IMG/VR virus record: IMGVR_UViG_2737471839_000014
DNA: 24,071 nt
DNA from: a virus
Taxonomy: Duplodnaviria > Heunggongvirae > Uroviricota > Caudoviricetes
Direction: 5' to 3' (one strand)
Within the stretch, counting starts at the first letter, position 1. Every line of letters begins with the position of its first letter. This document shows positions 2,347-21,245 of the stretch, in pieces. Both the position numbers and the translations under genes were made by a program. The notes beneath the pieces were generated by a model that saw only the letters and a list, made by a program, of their open reading frames with translations, was not told where the DNA came from and made no database searches.

Positions 2347-5300
2347 TACCGATATGCTCCACTTAACCGACCACCATCACGGGCCTGCTGTTGCATAAAG
2401 TCCGCTGCCGCTTTTTTCCCAAGGTCATAAACCACCTTCAGGGCAGCCGGACCTATCTGCCCGTTCGTGCCATCGTTATTGATCTCGATGTTGTACTGCG
2501 GGGCAAACATCGCCATACCTGAACCACCAATATCCGCCACAACCCCCAGCTTACCGTCAGCACCACGACGCAGAGGCAGAATGGCTTCAGGTCCCGCTTC
2601 ACCCATCACACCCGCGCCTTTTGCAAAAGCAAAAAACGTCGGACGGTTAACCACCGTGCCACTGTAACGACTCAAATCAGCAGACTGATAAATCCCCCCA
2701 TTGGCATTCAGGGAAAGGCTGCTGAGATCAAATCCCAGTACACTGCCAATCCCTTTTATCGATTTCATCATGGTTGCCTGCGCCAGGATTTTCGCCATAT
2801 CTGACAGCACAGAAGAGGTGAAGGATTTGAAATTGAGTTTGCCGGTAGTGACAAAAGTTGCCAGGCCATTTCCCATGTTGCTGAAGGCTGACGAGAACAC
2901 CTGTTCTGCTGTTCCTGCCGTATTATCTGCATCCACGGTAAAATCCTGAAATGCACGCAGGACTCCGTTTTTCCAGTTACCCTGCACAACTTCAAGCTGT
3001 TGCCAGTAACGGCGATTCTCATTCAGTTGTCGGTTCAGGCTCTCCGTCAGCGCCTGCTCGGCCTTTCTGTAGTCATCCGTGTTATATGTCCCTTTCTGCT
3101 CACTATCCCGCCTCAACTGCTCCAGCTGTTGCTGGTATTTCTGGCGAAGACTCAGTTGTACCTGATATCGCTGCCGCTGCTGATCACCCATACCCACCGT
3201 GGCGATATCCAGGTCATGTTGCTGACGCTGAGCGCGCTCTTCTTCAGCCAGTTGACTGGTCAGCTGAATTGTTTTTTTCTTCAGATCGTTGAGTGCCGTC
3301 TGTTTCTGAAGCTCCTGCTGTTTTACATCCAGCAGCGTCAGTGCCTGAATCAGTTCATCTTTACGGGCCAGCACACTCTTTTCATCTGCCGTCAGTTTTT
3401 TCCCGTCCAGATCGCTGATGCGCTGCTGCAGAGCCAGAAGCTGTTTATGCGCTTCTGTCATCTTTTCAGTGACAATGCCTGCTGACTGTCTTGCAGCAGC
3501 AATCTGTCCTTCCACCTGTGCCTGTTGCTGACTGTACTGCAGCAATAACCGGGTGGCCTCATCATTACGGGTTTCGCGTGTTTTTTTCTTACCGGATGCC
3601 AGGGCTTTCTCGTAACGTTCATTTTCACGTTGTATCGCTGCATCCCTGACAGCCTGATCGGCGTACTGCATGGAATTAATACGCGCAATTTCACGCTGAT
3701 GTCGTGCTGCTTCCGTTTCATTCATCCGGTTCAGTGCAGCATTTTCAGCATTACGTCGTTTCTGTTGCTCCTGATAATTCCGCTCTGCCTGCTCTTTTGC
3801 ATCCTGCAAATCCTTCTGGCGTTTTTTCTCCTGAAGATCGTTAAGACGCTGCTGATCGTATTCAACCTGAGAAGATGATGCCGTCCAGGGGAGTCTTTTC
3901 GCCCGCGACACTTTCTCCTGTAAAGCGGCAATCTGTTCATCCAGCGAGTCTTCACGACCAATATTCATGGCCGCATCCCAGAAACGACTCCACAAATCAG
4001 ACAGATACTTCAGCGTACTGCCAAGCGCATTGAGGTTATTATCAATATCCGCAGTACGCCGACCGGTTTCCTCTGCCAGTGCAGACATGGCTATCCGTGC
4101 AGCATCACTGGACCGTCCCTGATCCCCAAGGACACGTATCTGCTCAAGCTGAGTGGCAGTAAGAAAATGCAGCTCATTGTCCAGAGCCTTCGCGGCATTT
4201 ACAGGATCATCCTTCAGCCGCTTAAACTGATTTATGGTATCGCTGACCGACTGGCCAACCGATCGCTCCATCTGTGCGGCAGCTCTCGCCACCATACCGA
4301 TATCGTTTCCACGAAATGCACCACTCCCCACCACCTGAGCCAGCGCACCGGCTGCAGCATGTTGCGTGATACCATTCCCGGAAATAGCACGACTGAGCGT
4401 CCACAGCTGCCCGGCAGTGACTCCGGCATAATGCCCCGTCAGCGACAACTGGCGGTTAAATTCTTCCCCCTCCTTCTGACCGTCATACCAGGCTTTACCC
4501 AGACCATAGACGGACGCGGCAATACCGCCAATAACCCCGCCAAGCATCATGCCTTTCGGTGACATCAGAGTGTCTATCCATCCGGCACGGTTAGCCAGCG
4601 TTATCCCGGATCCCCTCAGCGCCCCTAAATTGCCGCGGGCCAGTTCACCTATCAGAACGCCAATCTCCTGGCGGGCCGCTGCACTTTTCAGACCCAGCGA
4701 ATGCGTGGCTTTTCCTGCCTGCTCCATTTTGCGGATATACACTTCTGCAGCACTGCTTACCCCCAGCTGGGCAGCCTTAGCACGAAGCAACTCAGAAGAA
4801 GAAAGATTCTGGCGGGTTGCCTGCTCTTTAAGCTGACGGATAAACGCCACTTTCTGTCGGGTAGCCTCTTCCTCAGCCTGCGTAAGAACACGGGTTTTCG
4901 CCGTAACCTCAGAAATCAGCGCCAGATAATCCTGCTGACCAATCCCGCCACTGTTTCTGGCCTGTCGGATCTGCTGCTGAATACGCTGTAATTCCTGCAG
5001 CCCCGCACTGGCCTGTTTCACACTGTCAATCTGACGATAAAACGCGGCAGCCGCTTTATCCTGAGCCTCCGCCAGAGCCATGGCCTGCGCCTGTTCCTCG
5101 CGCATTTTCTGGCTCAGTGCCTCCATACGCTGGCGGGTTTGCTCCACCTCGCGGGCCATGCGTTCATGAGCCTGTGCGCTCTTCTCCACCGTCTGCGCAT
5201 GGACGGATGCGGCTGTTGCAGCCGAAGAAGCCGCCTGCATTGTCTGCCGGGCGGCCTGAGTCTGACGCTCCATAAAACGCTGCATACGGGCAGAAGACCG

Positions 5301-5411
5301 TTCTGCATCGCTGGCTGCACCATTCAGAAGGTTTTTGATACGGGGAATTTCATTTTTAAACTCTGCCGCATCAATCCCCAAATCAATGACCAAGTTGGCT
5401 ATCTGGTCCAT
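2346..5411 (-). CDS. H: tail tape measure protein (gpH-like)
   Basis: Track ORF 2346..5441 begins with TTG; in-frame ATG at 5411 preceded by GGAGGTG gives N-terminus MDQIANLVIDLGIDAAEF resembling lambda gpH; about 1021 aa, long coiled-coil-rich middle, Gly-rich C-terminus; between T and M. Confidence 0.9.
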   Translation of the reverse strand: MDQIANLVIDLGIDAAEFKNEIPRIKNLLNGAASDAERSSARMQRFMERQTQAARQTMQAASSAATAASVHAQTVEKSAQAHERMAREVEQTRQRMEALSQKMREEQAQAMALAEAQDKAAAAFYRQIDSVKQASAGLQELQRIQQQIRQARNSGGIGQQDYLALISEVTAKTRVLTQAEEEATRQKVAFIRQLKEQATRQNLSSSELLRAKAAQLGVSSAAEVYIRKMEQAGKATHSLGLKSAAARQEIGVLIGELARGNLGALRGSGITLANRAGWIDTLMSPKGMMLGGVIGGIAASVYGLGKAWYDGQKEGEEFNRQLSLTGHYAGVTAGQLWTLSRAISGNGITQHAAAGALAQVVGSGAFRGNDIGMVARAAAQMERSVGQSVSDTINQFKRLKDDPVNAAKALDNELHFLTATQLEQIRVLGDQGRSSDAARIAMSALAEETGRRTADIDNNLNALGSTLKYLSDLWSRFWDAAMNIGREDSLDEQIAALQEKVSRAKRLPWTASSSQVEYDQQRLNDLQEKKRQKDLQDAKEQAERNYQEQQKRRNAENAALNRMNETEAARHQREIARINSMQYADQAVRDAAIQRENERYEKALASGKKKTRETRNDEATRLLLQYSQQQAQVEGQIAAARQSAGIVTEKMTEAHKQLLALQQRISDLDGKKLTADEKSVLARKDELIQALTLLDVKQQELQKQTALNDLKKKTIQLTSQLAEEERAQRQQHDLDIATVGMGDQQRQRYQVQLSLRQKYQQQLEQLRRDSEQKGTYNTDDYRKAEQALTESLNRQLNENRRYWQQLEVVQGNWKNGVLRAFQDFTVDADNTAGTAEQVFSSAFSNMGNGLATFVTTGKLNFKSFTSSVLSDMAKILAQATMMKSIKGIGSVLGFDLSSLSLNANGGIYQSADLSRYSGTVVNRPTFFAFAKGAGVMGEAGPEAILPLRRGADGKLGVVADIGGSGMAMFAPQYNIEINNDGTNGQIGPAALKVVYDLGKKAAADFMQQQARDGGRLSGAYR

Positions 5412-6110
5412 AACGCACACCTCCGGAAATACCTTCCCCAAGATGCATCAGTTCTTCGTCCGTTCGCTCCGGTATCCCGTTCTCTTCCGGTAAAAGGCTG
5501 AAATCAGCCACCGCAGCATCACTGCTACCGGACACCATTCTCACGATCAATGCCTTCAGCGAGGCAAACTGCGCATCCATCCACACATCACTGAAGCTCT
5601 GCATCCGGAAATAATCGCCCCACTCACCAAGCTCAGTGGCCGACATTTCCGACAGCATCCGCCGCCAGTCTGCCCGCCGGAACTCCCGGGCAAGCCGCAT
5701 GACAAACTGCATTTCCCGCGTCAGGACTTTTCCGGCGTCAGCACCTCATGCTCCAAATCCCCGGCATTCTCAATGACTCCCATACCGCTCAGCGACAGAA
5801 CCATCTCCGCCCCCGCTCCCAGGGCATCATACGACCATGTTGTAATAACGGATGCGCAAAGCGTCTCAACATCCTGAGACTGTTCCGCATTCCACAGTGA
5901 GCGGGAAACCAGCCAGGCATTGATATCCATCCCCATCCGCAGAAAAGCAATCTGTCGTTCAGCCTCCGGCAGTTCTCCCTCTTCGGCATCAAACTTTGCC
6001 GTTCGCTGCTGAACAAACGCCAGATATTCAATTCTCTGCAGCCCGGACAGCTCACTGAGCACCACGGACTGCTTTTCATAATTAAACGTGCCCTGTTTCA
6101 GAAACATCAT
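5383..6110 (-). CDS. T: G-T tail assembly chaperone fusion made by programmed -1 ribosomal frameshift
   Basis: -1 frame relative to G is open from 5745 through the 109 aa T ORF (5383..5712); slippery-like GGAAAAG at 5733..5727 lies 4 nt before the G stop; same arrangement as lambda G/GT. Confidence 0.6.
5721..6110 (-). CDS. G: tail assembly chaperone G
   Basis: ATGATG at 6110/6107 preceded by GGTGGAG; product MMFLKQGTFNYE...SELSGLQRIEYLAF resembles lambda gpG; stop TGA at 5721-5723; track ORF is extended upstream because an earlier non-ATG codon is in frame. Confidence 0.85.
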   Translation of the reverse strand: MMFLKQGTFNYEKQSVVLSELSGLQRIEYLAFVQQRTAKFDAEEGELPEAERQIAFLRMGMDINAWLVSRSLWNAEQSQDVETLCASVITTWSYDALGAGAEMVLSLSGMGVIENAGDLEHEVLTPEKS

Positions 6111-17351: not shown

Positions 17352-18374
<1,023 letters not shown>

Positions 18375-18378
<4 letters not shown>

Positions 18379-18686
18379 AGATATTTATGATGAGGACGCT
18401 CGTGCTTATTGGCAGGATTTTCAATCTTAAAGGAGTACTGATGCTGCAGATAAGACTCAACTTTTTCTGACAATTTTTCTGCTACTTCCAGGAAGACTTG
18501 CCGGACGCTCATTCTGGCTGCTGCCTCATAAAACTCCAGCGCAGCTCCTTCAACACGGTCCATGGCGACATCCAGGCCAAAAATTTCACCGTCAAAGCGT
18601 TCTTTGTCCCGTAACGCTAAAGTTACCGTAACTTTATTCTCAAAATTGCGGATCCCTTTCACAATCAGTTCATATTTTTGAGTCAT
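18375..18686 (-). CDS. YdfR-like protein (unknown function) between holin and endolysin
   Basis: 103 aa soluble ORF, ATG at 18686 with GGGAGAG SD; same size and position as ydfR of E. coli K-12 Qin (between essQ and rrrQ); identity by synteny and length only. Confidence 0.6.
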
Positions 18687-18690
18687 TGAA

Positions 18691-18906
18691 TTACTCTCCC
18701 CGTGCAGCCTTACGCTTGTCTTCTTTAATCTTGAAATAAAGGTTTGTCAGGTACGTCAGCAGGCCAAATACCAGGCTACCCAGCACACCTATTGCTGCCC
18801 ACTGTGAGGGCGTGACTTTATCGAGCAGCTGTAAAAACCAGTAGCCAGCACTGCCTGCGGAGGTGCCGTAGGCAATGCCTGTTGAAATTTTGTCCATGGA
18901 TTTCAT
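18691..18906 (-). CDS. class II holin (phage 21 S21-like pinholin) with dual-start motif
   Basis: [71 protein letters not shown] closely matches recalled S21; Met-Lys-Ser-Met dual start (ATG at 18906 and 18897); GGAGGTGA SD; track ORF extended upstream in frame. Confidence 0.85.
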
Positions 18907-19007
18907 AGCCTCACCTCCGCACGGAACGGATGGCATAGTTATTATGTGTAAGCTTCCAGACACATCAATCAGAGCCTTAATTGATATATATGCTGGAGAC
19001 GATGCAA

Positions 19008-19032
19008 TATAAAAAGCTCGCCGTAGCGAGCT
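19008..19032 (-). terminator. intrinsic terminator downstream of lipoprotein pair
   Basis: minus strand AGCTCGCTACGGCGAGCT (7-bp stem) followed by TTTTTAT; between lipoprotein 2 stop and holin start. Confidence 0.5.
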
Positions 19033-19157: not shown

Positions 19158-19553
19158 CTAACCTCGCATGTCAAAGCCAGATTTCTGAAAATCTCTGTAG
19201 ACTTCCGGATTGTTGAAGGCCGGAAATTTGGCTTTATGAGCTGCGGACTTTATCGCTTCGCAATAGGCTTTATCACCGTTACTGGTAGATATTTTTAACG
19301 CCGTGCCATCCTGAGAGAATTCCATATGCAACCTGCATTTTTTCCCTTTCCAGTTATGCGGCTCATCAAGTTTGGCATTAATTGCAGCTCTGATTCCCCG
19401 CGCTTGCGCCCCCCATTCATCCTGATCATCCCAGCGTCCTGAACTGCAACTACCTGTAGCAGTAGTTTTGTGGCAATCTGAAGGGTGTAAAGGTGTGCAT
19501 CCCGCAACAAAACCGACCCAAAAAGTCAACATAACGATTTTCTTTAATCCCAC
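19158..19553 (-). CDS. lipoprotein with diverged TolA C-terminal domain III-like fold (paralog 2)
   Basis: 131 aa; GTG start at 19553 with GAGGAG SD (alternative ATG at 19532); signal peptide with lipobox VAGC; C-terminal half ...KGKKCRLHMEFSQDGTALKISTSNGDKAYCEAIKSAAHKAKFPAFNNPEVYRDFQKSGFD shares spacing of Cys pair and Gly/Asp positions with paralog 1 and TolA domain III. Confidence 0.75.
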   Translation of the reverse strand: MGLKKIVMLTFWVGFVAGCTPLHPSDCHKTTATGSCSSGRWDDQDEWGAQARGIRAAINAKLDEPHNWKGKKCRLHMEFSQDGTALKISTSNGDKAYCEAIKSAAHKAKFPAFNNPEVYRDFQKSGFDMRG

Positions 19554-19703
19554 TTCTTGCTCCTCAATCCATTAAAATCTCAGCAATAGTAGTTGTTACG
19601 TCCGCCACTGGCTCAGAGCTGACTATCCGCTAAATTTAGCTCAGTGCCGTAGTTGTGTCAGAACAAACCTAAGCCGAAACCGTTTATTACAAAACAATAA
19701 ATA

Positions 19704-20132
19704 TCAGGGTTTAAAATCCAGCACCCCATTTTGAAATACTTTATATACTTCCGGCGAAGGGGGGGCAGGTATATCAGCATTCTTTATCGCATTCATCGCT
19801 TCACGACATAAATCGAGGTATCCACTTTCTCTTTTAACCTCCAGTAGAAGGCCATTCGGGGCCATATGCATTCTCAGTGTACACTCTTTTCCTGAATACT
19901 TACTCGCATCCCCGAACTGTTTTTCGATGGCGCTCTTGATTTGATGGGCATACAGACGGATATCCTCACTAACATCAGAAGTACGTTCAGATGAACTCAC
20001 ATACTGTGTCTCTATTGCTTTATCGGAGTAATATGATGTACGGTCATGATAATTTGTCGATACAGCATCAGTGCACCCGATAATAATCCCACTAATAATC
20101 AACGTAAGAATTGATGCGCTACGAAAACCCAT
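19704..20132 (-). CDS. lipoprotein with TolA C-terminal domain III-like domain (paralog 1)
   Basis: 142 aa; ATG at 20132 with GAGGA SD; signal peptide MGFRSASILTLIISGIIIGC (lipobox IIGC, Thr at +2); C-terminus YAHQIKSAIEKQFGDASKYSGKECTLRMHMAPNGLLLEVKRESGYLDLCREAMNAIKNADIPAPPSPEVYKVFQNGVLDFKP aligns with recalled E. coli TolA C-terminus YAGQIKSAIESKFYDASSYAGKTCTLRIKLAPDGMLLDIKPEGGDPALCQAALAAAKLAKIPKPPSQAVYEVFKNAPLDFKP. Confidence 0.8.
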   Translation of the reverse strand: MGFRSASILTLIISGIIIGCTDAVSTNYHDRTSYYSDKAIETQYVSSSERTSDVSEDIRLYAHQIKSAIEKQFGDASKYSGKECTLRMHMAPNGLLLEVKRESGYLDLCREAMNAIKNADIPAPPSPEVYKVFQNGVLDFKP

Positions 20133-20831
20133 TTTTCCTCACATATGTCATATAGTAAAGGATTATATATACCGTTGTTTTGGACGCTCAAACAGCGAAT
20201 CAGATCAAATAAAACGCACATTTGTTAACATTTACACAAAGTCTGCGTGGGATATTCTGAAAGAATATCCATAATGTGGAGAGAATCTATTGAAGTGCAT
20301 GGTGCCGGGTGCCTCCCGGTGAATTCAGTACCAGCACCTGAATCCACGATTATCCCATATACCTACTCGCTGATTGCCCCTCCGCATAGGGGGATTCACC
20401 ATGCCAGTTTCTTTTAACAAACTCCCCGCAAACCAGACAACAGTCAACCGCCTGAATTGTGAAGTATTTAAAAATTTCTCCCGCTAACTGATACCCGGCT
20501 AACAGTCTGGCGTTTTCTTTTTCAGCAACGGGAAAGCAACAACCACCACACCCGCCACCAGCACACCGTCAGCCAGCACTGACATTATCCGGCTGCTGCA
20601 ATGCCATTCACAAAAACAGTAAGCAATCACTTTTTACCGTAACAGGTGATAATCCAGATATGTATCTACCCCAGATGAGTAATCCGAAGTTCATCCATAC
20701 CACAGGTCCTGGCTATTCTGTTGTACTCCTGAACAAGAGCAAATAATTCTGAATTAGCAACCATGAACTCATCGCAAACCCTCTGTATAGCATCACTATT
20801 CAGAATAATAACGTCTCTTCCCGAAAGACGA

Positions 20832-21245
20832 TCAGGAGTACAGAACAAAACTGTCAAACGGCTGAAGGCCTTTGCTCGTGCTGCATTGACTATACAACAC
20901 CATTGCGCCGGTACCATAACGGTGAATGACGGTTTCGCTGTGATGATAATCGCCGTGTGGCCACTGGCAGGATTTAATATGGCGCAACAGCCAGTCAGAC
21001 AATGCACCAGCACCACCAGCAGCACGAATCACCCGTGCGTTACTGAAAAACGGCAGCAATGTTTTGTCTTCCACCAGCGGCTGGCGAGCGGCAGGGACGA
21101 CCCCGGACGGCAGATTACGCATGCTTTTCGGTTCCGGCTCCACCAGTAACCGGGTATTGTGGAATACCGGCATGGATTCACGGCCCGGCTTAACGATCAC
21201 CAGCCCGAGTTCCGGTACCAGAACAGGTCGAAGTAATACCCGCAC
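20832..21245 (-). CDS. hypothetical protein in the late-regulator (Q) position
   Basis: 137 aa; GTG start directly after upstream ORF stop with GGAGG 4 nt upstream; no recognised motif; overlapped by an alternative-frame ORF (20666..21025). Confidence 0.35.
   Translation of the reverse strand: MRVLLRPVLVPELGLVIVKPGRESMPVFHNTRLLVEPEPKSMRNLPSGVVPAARQPLVEDKTLLPFFSNARVIRAAGGAGALSDWLLRHIKSCQWPHGDYHHSETVIHRYGTGAMVLYSQCSTSKGLQPFDSFVLYS

Follow-up and report, generated by a model that had tools for sequence, protein, structure and literature searches.

The window analysed here, the whole 24,071-nucleotide stretch of IMG/VR virus record IMGVR_UViG_2737471839_000014, carries two adjacent ORFs on its minus strand, P1 (142 aa, positions 19704..20132) and P2 (131 aa, 19158..19553). 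Both encode lipoprotein precursors with a TolA domain III (TolAIII) at the C-terminus, divergent in P2, as judged from the ORFs, Pfam and phmmer and, for P1, also tblastn. Each gene has its own Shine-Dalgarno sequence, GAGG(A) at 20137..20140 with the ATG of P1 4 nt further on, and GAGGAG at 19560..19565 with the GTG start of P2 6 nt further on (both minus strand). These genes and sites are as an earlier note on this DNA had described them. The roughly 45 nt on the 5' side of P2, including its Shine-Dalgarno sequence, are kept in plasmid, Serratia and Enterobacter copies.

A sigma-70 promoter-like site (TTGAGC-18-TATAAT, 20162..20191, minus strand) with 10 of 12 consensus matches lies upstream of P1; nine promoter-like sites were found against 5.0 +/- 2.5 expected by chance, and they are consensus matches only. 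In other prophages that carry a 90% P1 variant, the -35 element is identical and the -10 element reads TGTAAT. The gap between P2 and the holin gene holds a terminator-like hairpin followed by a T-run (AGCTCGC-TACG-GCGAGCT, 19005..19032, minus strand), likewise a consensus match only, which corresponds to the terminator that the earlier note placed after the pair. The holin, of the P21 S / EssD type (18691..18906, minus strand; Pfam PF04971, E 9e-36), opens a lysis cassette whose other genes, DUF1327 (ydfR), lysozyme (rrrQ) and the Rz-like DUF2514 (rzpQ), occupy 17352..18686 on the same strand according to Pfam and matching annotation. It directly follows P2 in all 80 of 80 IMG/VR loci. From these features P1-P2 is predicted to form a putative promoter-to-terminator cassette directly upstream of the lysis genes.

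The pair had been placed between ORFs in the Q position and the holin. Relatives have Q 1.3-1.4 kb upstream of P1 and the holin after the cassette, so this description is right for the family; in the window, however, the upstream ORFs are not Q. A deletion of 2,353 bp (junction at 20894..20897, from blastn against strain PEC1011) took a tRNA gene, the Q antiterminator gene, rusA and the 3' two-thirds of a DUF968 gene, of which residues 17-133 remain, and tblastn detected neither Q nor RusA in the window. The prophage in the window is decayed, and the cassette is intact despite the lost Q. To test for a domesticated lineage, the same junction was sought elsewhere, but none of 5,426 complete E. 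coli genomes and none of the fetched loci has it. The junction is private to the window, and the loss of Q therefore says little about selection.

By direct reading, P1 starts with MGFR, SASILTLIISGII and the lipobox I-I-G-C20, followed by T21, and IIGC agrees with the lipobox pattern [LVI][ASTVI][GAS]C. The signal peptide with its lipobox (MGFRSASILTLIISGIIIGC, Cys20, Thr at +2) is encoded at 20073..20132, and is followed by a linker of residues 21-54 (19971..20072) that is predicted to be disordered (pLDDT <50 over residues 22-52). The linker varies among P1 variants and differs strongly in a 65% variant that retains the domain. The TolAIII domain itself (aa 55-142, 19707..19970, all minus strand) is modelled by AlphaFold with pLDDT >90, contains Cys84-Cys109, and finishes with the terminal beta3 strand LDFKP, the C-terminal end of the protein being ...VYKVFQNGVLDFKP. 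The PHROGs match of P1, phrog_5772, is labelled function unknown.

P2 reads MGLKK, IVMLTFWVGF and V-A-G-C19, followed by T20, and the start MG-x-KKIV is common to P2 homologues. PGAP places the start later, at Met8, which leaves no charged n-region. As in P1, the export signal was read directly from the sequence: MGLKKIVMLTFWVGFVAGC at 19497..19553 (minus strand) comprises signal peptide and lipobox, with Cys19 and a Thr at +2. It is followed by a conserved N-terminal module (aa 20-44, TPLHPSDCHKTTATGSCSSGRWDDQ, 19422..19496, minus strand) with an extra Cys27/Cys36 pair. Among 131 cluster representatives from many genera, mean column identity was 0.964 over aa 20-48, compared with 0.923 over the domain; the structure of the module is poorly predicted by AlphaFold. 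The TolAIII domain (aa 45-131, 19161..19421, minus strand; pLDDT about 90) has Cys73-Cys98 and the terminal strand FDMRG. PHROGs matches were phrog_5772 (E 7e-65) and, weakly, phrog_5374 (E 0.0035), both labelled unknown function. A colicin TolB-box in the P2 linker (SSGRWDDQDEWG) was considered and dropped, since by eye the essential Asp/Ser are out of register with the motif, which we take to be DG[ST]GWSSE.

All comparisons agreed on the relationship to TolA. Pfam PF06519 (TolA_C, gathering cut-off 25 bits) matched P1 with 78.6 bits (E 4e-22) and P2 with 54.6 bits (E 1e-14). Against E. coli TolA structures, phmmer gave E 1e-26 for P1, gap-free over 88 aa, and E 5e-9 for P2; in tblastn against K-12 tolA, P1 was 59% identical over 86 aa and P2 34% over 77 aa. 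Foldseek superposed the AlphaFold model of P1 on TolAIII 2x9a_B with TM 0.94 and rmsd 0.6 Å, and that of P2 on 3qdp with TM 0.91 and rmsd 1.2 Å, and the three-helix, three-strand alpha/beta fold of TolAIII is present in both. The two cysteines are 25 positions apart in each protein, as are C363-C388 of TolA, and their columns are invariant in the alignments. The similarity is far beyond chance, confirming P1 and P2 as genuine TolAIII homologues. The near position-for-position alignment of P1 that the earlier note had described, with both Cys and the LDFKP end, and the diverged P2 with its Cys pair kept, were thus borne out, also by structure prediction.

P1 and P2 are nevertheless clearly distinct from full-length TolA. 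They measure 131-142 aa against 421 aa, and start with lipoprotein signal peptides of 19-20 residues; the N-terminal inner-membrane anchor that couples TolA to TolQ-TolR is absent. So is helical domain II, the matches covering only positions 293-386/387 of model NF007065 and 265-362/362 of TIGR02794. Both proteins fall below the NF007065 equivalog cut-off of 213 (104 bits for P1, 53.7 for P2). For TIGR02794 (cut-off 59.45), P2 stays below with 47.2 bits, whereas P1 passes with 72.6 bits on its C-terminal domain alone, which probably explains the RefSeq label 'tolA'. The genes lie outside a ybgC-tolQRA-tolB-pal operon, in a Qin-like prophage between the DUF968 remnant and the holin, and their dS against E. 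coli tolA is saturated at 2.5, so they are not recent tolA fragments.

The lipobox Cys is invariant in the family alignments, and the preceding Gly nearly so (at least 90%). As neither protein has Asp at +2 (Thr instead), sorting to the outer membrane is predicted, in line with the earlier proposal, and P1 and P2 are thus predicted outer-membrane lipoproteins. Among 74 short, TolAIII-only representatives, at least 44 had a lipobox, none of these with Asp at +2, indicating at least 44 diverse clusters of short TolAIII lipoproteins. Nearest neighbours of the short forms were mixed (59 short-to-short, 23 short-to-long), and a single origin is accordingly not claimed. A profile search with the family alignment returned the P2 family and nothing further.

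Of 5,426 complete E. coli genomes, 773 (about 14%) carry the P1-P2 cassette with an identity of >=99%. P1-type genes are restricted to E. coli/Shigella and have so far turned up in prophage slots alone, often without P2 in the same slot; for a 65% P1 variant the location is between Q and nanS-p/holin, the stx position of Stx phages. P2-type genes occur across Enterobacterales, including Enterobacter, Klebsiella, Citrobacter and Serratia, and many Enterobacteriaceae have one in the chromosome. About 600 plasmids of the pO157 type and the I-complex carry one; on I-complex conjugative plasmids it lies in the transfer region, 68 bp downstream of the relaxase gene. Identity of this plasmid gene with R64 yggA was ruled out, yggA being unrelated and located across oriT. 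In Serratia marcescens a P2-type gene adjoins GmrSD and HEPN defence genes. Among GTDB species representatives, 29 have P2-type genes, in housekeeping contexts, and synteny of the flanks extends over 5 species of Leclercia and, separately, over 4 of Enterobacter; overall the gene is patchy rather than core, many loci being singletons in unrelated contexts. The family is therefore not confined to prophages, the setting in which the earlier note had described it. Nor did the two genes, which the earlier note called paralogs, arise by a recent duplication: their products share about 30% identity and belong to two lineages with different distributions.

In 50,696 of 50,697 phage genomes the cassette was absent (tblastn), the sole match being mEp460_ev081. 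Foldseek found no TolAIII-fold match among viral structure models at E <= 0.001, and the PADLOC-DB defence models gave no match to P1 or P2 at E <= 1. Databases name the genes 'cell envelope integrity protein TolA' or 'TolA C-terminal domain-containing protein', and PGAP labels P1 'tolA', sometimes as a partial pseudogene.

Compared with plasmid, Serratia and Enterobacter copies, P2 had a dN/dS of 0.08-0.12 at dS 0.5-1.05, a ratio of about 0.1 that indicates strong purifying selection on P2-type genes. E. coli copies differ from those of Enterobacter by a dS of about 1, which points to old divergence and not to recent spread. For P1, dN/dS was 0.28-0.39.

The surfaces through which TolAIII binds its ligands differ in their fate. 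The TolA beta3 strand A415-K420 is the edge to which TolB, g3p-N1 and colicin N each attach a further beta-strand, chiefly through backbone hydrogen bonds, and proline mutants in this strand that do not bind TolB show the full tol phenotype (PMC4339652). P1 is identical to TolA at L417-D418-F419-K420-P421; P2 has F-D-M-R-G there, a conservative, beta-compatible replacement predicted to form a strand. The colicin A site comprises L375-P380 plus K368, K379 and K396 (PMC3365938). It is mostly retained in P1 (L375, L376, K379 and K396 kept; K368H, D377E, I378V, P380R) and lost in P2 (K368E, L375A, D377K, K379S, P380T, K396H). A third element, K351-F352-Y353, includes a Tyr that genetic evidence implicates in TolB binding. 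Its residues occur in 74%, 91% and 70% of 47 full-length TolAs but in 28%, 40% and 22% of 67 short forms, and at the Y353 position P1 has G and P2 has D. This relaxation fits decoys selected to spare Tol-Pal.

The reading that we favour, tentatively and with nearly even chances of its being right, is that P1 and P2, uncoupled from the motor, act as decoys for filamentous phages and for TolA-dependent colicins. Both proteins would most likely be exported and lipid-anchored, suspended by a tether of 25-35 residues from the periplasmic side of the outer membrane. As they have neither transmembrane anchor nor domain II, they cannot couple to the TolQR motor. Expressed in the lysogen, they could capture the TolA-binding epitopes of invaders just past the outer membrane, likely targets being group A colicin translocation domains, the N-terminus of TolB as recruited by nuclease colicins, and the N1 domain of Ff/If1-type g3p; If1 g3p uses TolAIII as a co-receptor (PDB 2x9a). 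A captured invader would stall because no proton-motive force could be applied to it, and the cell would be tolerant with its own Tol-Pal function preserved. Colicin N and g3p bind TolAIII at about 1 µM and TolB at about 40 µM, so that a moderate decoy level should preferentially bind invaders. The two proteins may also split the ligands, P1 as a close mimic of E. coli TolA with both known binding faces, and P2 offering the beta3-like edge strand alone together with its conserved Cys-loop module.

Several observations are in favour of such decoys. The residue-level data fit, P1 retaining LDFKP together with the greater part of the colicin A site, and the genes reside on elements that profit from protection of the host (prophages, about 600 plasmids, a defence neighbourhood). 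The genuine TolAIII domains, the lipoprotein signal peptides in place of anchor and domain II, the dN/dS values of both genes and a cassette that is intact despite the lost Q speak for it as well. In 1993, Levengood-Freyermuth, Click and Webster (J Bacteriol 175:222) directed TolAIII into the periplasm of wild-type cells, which reportedly became tolerant to colicins. The outer membranes of these cells reportedly also became leaky, so a decoy may be costly. Colicin killing is single-hit, and a protective decoy would thus be needed in large excess. Other points count against the decoy reading: P2 is without the colicin A site, a simple tethered decoy does not explain the Cys-loop module that is the most conserved part of P2, no PADLOC model matched, the position upstream of the holin in 80/80 loci also fits a lysis-related role, and P2-type genes at ordinary, partly syntenic chromosomal sites could have a housekeeping envelope role.

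In a wider form, to which we give somewhat less than even chances, prophages and conjugative plasmids of Enterobacteriaceae would share a mobile 'co-receptor decoy' immunity based on outer-membrane-tethered TolAIII, giving broad tolerance to group A colicins and exclusion of filamentous phages, with ligands divided between P1 and P2 and the P2 Cys-loop serving as a second binding element. The I pili of I-complex plasmids are the receptor of phage If1, and the plasmid copy would offset this liability.

A first alternative takes the position of the genes as its starting point. Because the cassette lies between Q and the holin in relatives, it would be part of the late transcript, and P1 and P2 could be Tol-Pal modulators serving the phage: a tethered TolAIII binding the TolB N-terminus or Pal would be dominant negative and weaken the link between outer membrane and wall, easing outer-membrane rupture when made late and Q-dependently, and raising vesicle shedding at the low level of lysogens. 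The invariable place before the holin (80/80 loci, downstream of Q in intact relatives), the exact retention of the TolB-binding strand in P1, the tol phenotype of the beta3 proline mutants and the leakiness reportedly caused by periplasmic TolAIII in the 1993 work all agree with this. We nonetheless consider it unlikely, since P2-type genes have been conserved as well on plasmids and in chromosomal locations that have no lysis genes nearby, and the promoter-like site, the terminator-like hairpin before the holin and retention without Q point to expression independent of lysis. Moreover, Y353 is not kept, the genes occur in one of 50,697 phage genomes and the fold in no viral structure model, and lambdoid lysis works without such a factor.

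The chromosomal copies lead to a second alternative, to which we would give roughly one chance in a handful: an endogenous accessory envelope lipoprotein of Enterobacteriaceae with a non-defence role, for instance buffering or parking TolB or anchoring a partner via the Cys-loop module, which E. coli prophages and plasmids took up as cargo of general benefit to envelope fitness. The 29 species representatives with housekeeping contexts and syntenic Leclercia and Enterobacter flanks, the old divergence at dS about 1, the highly conserved N-terminal module of P2 and the at least 44 diverse clusters of short TolAIII lipoproteins argue for it. However, the gene is patchy, with many singleton loci in unrelated contexts, no P1-type gene is known outside a prophage slot, and the repeated capture of the gene, be it by prophages, by I-complex and pO157-type plasmids or by a defence islet, suggests a benefit that is portable and does not depend on context.

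Far less probable is exclusion by receptor masking in the manner of Cor and Llp, in which the domain or the P2 Cys-loop would block the periplasmic face of a receptor or translocator (e.g. OmpF, BtuB, TolC) used by tailed phages or colicins. Small temperate-phage lipoproteins that are predicted to sit in the outer membrane and point into the periplasm would suit this, as would the otherwise unexplained P2 module, but Pfam gave no similarity to Cor or Llp and only TolA_C above threshold (TonB_2 and But2 matches were sub-threshold). In addition, the ligand-binding edge strand of TolAIII is the strongest conserved feature, and the Tol-Pal papers examined mention no outer-membrane protein partner of TolAIII. 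Functionless debris, i.e. 3' tolA fragments from illegitimate recombination that are passively carried, is hardly credible: the PGAP 'tolA' and partial pseudogene labels and the decayed prophage would agree with it, but the sequence statistics argue strongly against it, both genes having their own Shine-Dalgarno sequences, start codons and complete lipoprotein signal peptides on the domain, with dN/dS about 0.1 across genera, >=99% identity of the cassette in 773 genomes and a saturated dS of 2.5 from E. coli tolA.

TolAIII is a common funnel for colicins and filamentous phages, and cells are known to be protected by an immunity protein specific to one toxin or else by a tol mutation, which is costly. 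If the decoy reading is true, a small transferable gene would confer broad tolerance through co-receptor mimicry, a new principle in bacterial warfare, covering group A colicins whatever their killing domain and helping to explain the natural colicin insensitivity of E. coli isolates. On I-complex plasmids the copy would make up for a phage liability created by the plasmid's own pili, and P2-type proteins, more than passive decoys, might represent a new accessory partner of Tol-Pal. Relatives of the cassette genes lie on resistance or virulence plasmids (pO157-type, I-complex), so that consequences, if there are any, for therapeutics based on colicins or phages, for vesicle production or for the permeability of the envelope would be widespread. 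For annotation, the 142-aa 'tolA' in hundreds of RefSeq genomes is not TolA.

The earlier note knew of no characterised system of this kind, and full-text literature searches found no functional characterisation of P1- or P2-type proteins; passing mentions occur in a UPEC accessory-gene table and as a 'putative colicin uptake protein TolA' of a Cronobacter prophage. The closest relative is TolAIII itself (PDB 1tol, 1s62, 2x9a, 3qdp/3qdr), with the same fold and disulfide spacing. In P1 and P2, unlike in TolA, a lipoprotein signal peptide replaces the anchor and domain II, which would mean attachment to the outer and not the inner membrane; the genes are on prophages and plasmids, and K351-F352-Y353 is not kept.

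Among phage-encoded proteins, Cor of lambdoid phages and Llp of T5 are small outer-membrane lipoproteins that protect the host against further invaders. They have no sequence relationship to P1 and P2 by Pfam, and they bind and inactivate FhuA, whereas P1 and P2 would mimic a periplasmic co-receptor of the host and bind the invader. Lambda-type morons adjoining the lysis genes (bor, lom, and stx in Stx phages) resemble P1-P2 as an additional late-region cassette with promoter- and terminator-like sites, but product and presumed function differ, Bor being a serum-resistance lipoprotein and Stx a toxin. TraT, a surface-exposed outer-membrane lipoprotein of conjugative plasmids, limits foreign entry by acting on mating-pair stabilisation. 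It resembles the P2-type genes in the transfer region of I-complex plasmids, but is unrelated in sequence and does not act on TolA-dependent import. In function, the nearest parallel is the engineered periplasmic TolAIII of 1993, a stand-alone domain in a tolA+ cell that, by competition, reportedly made the cell tolerant to group A colicins; it serves as the functional model for the decoy idea. The engineered domain was artificial and soluble, an over-produced host sequence, whereas P1 and P2 are natural, diverged, predicted to be lipid-anchored, and mobile.

Two neighbouring ORFs on the minus strand of the window, P1 (19704-20132, 142 aa, ATG start) and P2 (19158-19553, 131 aa, GTG start), each encode a lipoprotein signal peptide, a linker and a C-terminal domain related to domain III of TolA (TolAIII). 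Both are preceded on that strand by a Shine-Dalgarno site, GAGG(A) 4 nt before the ATG of P1 and GAGGAG 6 nt before the GTG of P2. On direct reading, the N-termini open with a short n-region that is charged, then run through hydrophobic residues to a lipobox, which is IIGC in P1 and VAGC in P2. The lipobox Cys is followed in both by Thr, and because of this residue at +2 the two proteins are predicted to be outer-membrane lipoproteins.

The homology of P1 and P2 to TolAIII is solid. Pfam TolA_C was matched with 78.6 bits by P1 and 54.6 bits by P2 (cut-off 25 bits). Phmmer against the E. coli TolA structures (1s62, 3qdp, 2x9a and 1tol) gave E values of 1e-26 for P1, gap-free across 88 aa, and 5e-9 for P2, and tblastn against K-12 tolA gave 59% over 86 aa and 34% over 77 aa, respectively. 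The AlphaFold models had pLDDT >90 in the P1 domain (residues 55-142) and ~90 in that of P2 (residues 45-131), with low confidence towards the N-terminus; the top Foldseek matches were 2x9a_B for P1 (TM 0.94, rmsd 0.6 A) and 3qdp for P2 (TM 0.91, rmsd 1.2 A). The Cys363/Cys388 pair of TolA is kept in both proteins with identical spacing. The earlier note had described two exported lipoproteins resembling TolA domain III; the ORFs, their signals and the homology were all found, and the Pfam, phmmer, tblastn and Foldseek matches bear this core observation out.

Neither protein is a TolA, however, since neither has the membrane anchor or domain II, and the NCBIfam TolA models were matched over their last ~95 positions only. 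Domain-based annotations of the genes already exist. The 142-aa P1 is labelled 'tolA: cell envelope integrity protein TolA' in RefSeq, probably because its C-terminal domain alone passes the TIGR02794 cut-off, and in one genome it is flagged as a partial pseudogene despite an intact ORF. For P2, the RefSeq start is Met8, leaving the signal peptide without its charged n-region; the GTG start has a Shine-Dalgarno site and yields a normal signal peptide, and homologues keep the N-terminus MG-x-KKIV.

A promoter-like site, TTGAGC-18-TATAAT (20162-20191, minus strand; 10/12 consensus matches), lies upstream of P1, and a terminator-like hairpin with a T-run (19015-19032, minus) separates P2 from the downstream gene for a P21-type holin (18691-18906, minus). 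The holin gene is followed on the same strand by genes for a DUF1327 protein, lysozyme and an Rz-like protein, beyond which lies a Qin-type cspI/ynfN/gnsB cluster. Embedded out of frame in the Rz-like gene (17352-17849) is an ORF (17402-17698, minus) whose product has LTSC, similar to a lipobox, and a tail rich in proline, and resembles an Rz1-type outer-membrane spanin subunit. A small DUF3927 ORF (20499-20630, minus; Pfam E 2e-27) is found upstream of P1, and is annotated upstream of the P1-P2 cassette in strains 55989 and PEC1011 too.

In comparison with strain PEC1011, the window is missing 2,353 bp, comprising a tRNA, the Q antiterminator gene, rusA and the 3' two-thirds of the DUF968 gene. 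The junction (20894-20897, among ORFs 20666-21245) was found in 0 of 5,426 complete E. coli genomes and in none of the fetched loci, and is private to the window. The upstream ORFs, earlier assigned to the Q position, are not Q, which was lost with the deletion; tblastn over the whole window detected neither Q nor RusA. Relatives do have Q, with its end 1.3-1.4 kb upstream of P1. Since Q is deleted, the window prophage is defective for late transcription, its late operon cannot be antiterminated, and the cassette, if expressed here, must rely on its own promoter.

How widespread the pair is, a check proposed in the earlier note, was determined in two collections: the cassette was present in 773 of 5,426 complete E. 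coli genomes (>=99% identity, >=80% coverage) and in one of 50,697 phage records, mEp460_ev081 (LR597641.1). Judging by its name, this phage may be a laboratory-evolved isolate. From Q to the lysis genes, with the cassette and Qin-type cspG/gnsB included, it matches the window at ~99%, and this region may have been acquired by recombination with a resident defective prophage. Among the best 80 of 147 IMG/VR relatives, P1 precedes P2 in 78 and is partial in the other two, and the holin gene comes next in all 80.

P1-type proteins formed 46 clusters, and those with an organism name come from E. coli or Shigella. Other lambdoid prophages carry variants of 90% and 65% identity, on their own, in the corresponding slot between Q and the holin gene, and one variant lies between Q and nanS-p, the exact position of stx in Stx phages. 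In the prophages with the 65% variant (L007-L010, 2636-4539), a TfpB-domain gene and an AraC-type regulator gene are located between Q and the TolA-like gene; in L009 nanS-p follows. These genes make up another cargo set in the stx slot. The closest relative of P1 beyond its own family is E. coli TolA, and the capture is old, because synonymous sites between P1 and E. coli tolA are saturated (dS 2.5).

P2-type proteins (370 clusters) occur in Citrobacter, Enterobacter, Serratia, Klebsiella, Raoultella and others, and their genes in 29 GTDB species representatives. In most of these genera the gene occupies an ordinary chromosomal site with no lysis genes nearby; its flanks are syntenic within Leclercia and part of Enterobacter, and unrelated elsewhere. 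In Serratia marcescens (L015-L017, 5001-7736) the genes immediately downstream of it encode a GmrSD-family type IV restriction protein and a HEPN-domain protein, and the group looks like a small defence islet. P2-type genes were also found on 601 E. coli/Shigella plasmids at 80-90% nucleotide identity. On I-complex conjugative plasmids (IncB/O, IncK2/Z) the gene (~5004-5435 or 4004-4435 in L004, L021 and L022; 88% aa identity) lies 68 bp downstream of a nikB-type relaxase gene on the same strand, and on pO157-type IncF plasmids (L003, L023) it is flanked by toxB on one side and the hok/psiA/psiB region on the other. The picture thus extends beyond tandem prophage paralogues: P1 and P2 share only ~30% identity, differ in distribution and are two unrelated lineages within a large exported TolAIII family, and the P2 lineage is mainly chromosomal and plasmid-borne.

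An exhaustive search returned many further short (100-200 aa) TolAIII-only proteins. Among 74 fetched, at least 44 have a lipobox, in no case with Asp at +2, and ~10 others a Sec-type signal peptide; the few with an organism name are from Enterobacterales (Serratia, Rouxiella). Exported 'mini-TolA' proteins thus form a broad class.

The dN/dS of P2 was 0.11 against plasmid copies (dS 0.5), 0.08 against Serratia (dS 0.84) and 0.08 against Enterobacter (dS 1.05), and P1 variants gave 0.28-0.39; judged from sequence, P1 and P2 are functional genes. The 'linker' of P2 (residues 20-44, 19422-19496, minus) is a module of the form C-x-PLHPS-x-CHKTTATGSCSSGRWDDQDEWG with an extra Cys pair. In 131 representatives the segment between the lipobox Cys and the domain is more conserved than TolAIII itself (mean column identity 0.964 vs 0.923), which suggests that P2 has another functional element besides TolAIII, probably one for binding.

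In TolA, strand beta3 (A415-K420) is bound through beta-strand addition, mainly by backbone hydrogen bonds, by the TolB N-terminus, g3p-N1 and colicin N; D418P and K420P abolish all three interactions and give a tol phenotype, and affinities for TolAIII are ~1 uM for colicin N and g3p and ~40 uM for TolB (PMC4339652). Colicin A binds the opposite face at L375-P380 and makes cation-pi contacts with K368, K379 and K396 (PMC3365938). P1 keeps L417-D418-F419-K420-P421 exactly, and at the colicin A site L375, L376, K379 and K396 are kept and K368H, D377E, I378V and P380R changed. P2 ends in F-D-M-R-G at the LDFKP equivalent; none of the three lysines is kept, and little of the identity in the 375-380 strand remains. 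There is genetic evidence for a role in TolB binding of the Tyr in K351-F352-Y353, at the end of helix 1. Whereas strand beta3 is kept in both 47 full-length TolAs and 67 short exported forms, these three residues are conserved at 74%, 91% and 70% in the former and 28%, 40% and 22% in the latter, and Y353 is replaced by Gly in P1 and Asp in P2; relaxation of the motif in short forms is suggestive only, because the two sets differ in taxonomic breadth.

The decoy idea of the earlier note is still the best hypothesis, held tentatively: P1 and P2 would be motor-uncoupled decoys for TolA-dependent colicins and filamentous phages. Anchored at the inner face of the outer membrane, with no coupling to TolQR, they would encounter colicin translocation domains or the phage g3p tip right after outer-membrane crossing and bind them through the edge strand that native TolA also presents; import would then stall because no force could be applied. 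Because the invaders bind TolAIII ~40 times more tightly than TolB does, decoys at a moderate level could be protective and still spare Tol-Pal from severe harm, and loss of the K-F-Y motif may lower interference further. In an engineered precedent from 1993, a periplasmic TolAIII fragment reportedly made tolA+ cells colicin-tolerant, and also leaky. The I pili of conjugative I-complex plasmids are the receptor of phage If1. The g3p of If1 uses TolAIII as co-receptor (PDB 2x9a). The carriers (prophages, I-complex plasmids, virulence plasmids and a defence islet) fit a protective cargo.

The invariable position of the cassette in front of the holin gene would suit Tol-Pal dominant negatives that aid lysis or vesicle release, but this role is unlikely given the terminator before the holin, the plasmid and chromosomal copies without lysis genes, and the near-absence among sequenced phages. 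Similarly doubtful is that the proteins are endogenous envelope lipoproteins serving some purpose other than defence, a reading favoured by the location of P2 genes at chromosomal sites, in part syntenic, and by the conserved extra module of P2. Receptor masking in the manner of Cor/Llp is very improbable, and functionless tolA debris is effectively excluded by the signal peptides, Shine-Dalgarno sites and dN/dS values.

Proteins of the P1/P2 type are mentioned in passing in a UPEC accessory-gene table and for a Cronobacter prophage, with the conjecture that TolA aids phage entry; no functional study was found in full-text literature searches, no PADLOC model for P1 or P2 and no viral structure model with a TolAIII fold. 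Phage- and plasmid-encoded exclusion lipoproteins are already known, and copying the host's periplasmic co-receptor would, if the decoy hypothesis is true, be new among them.
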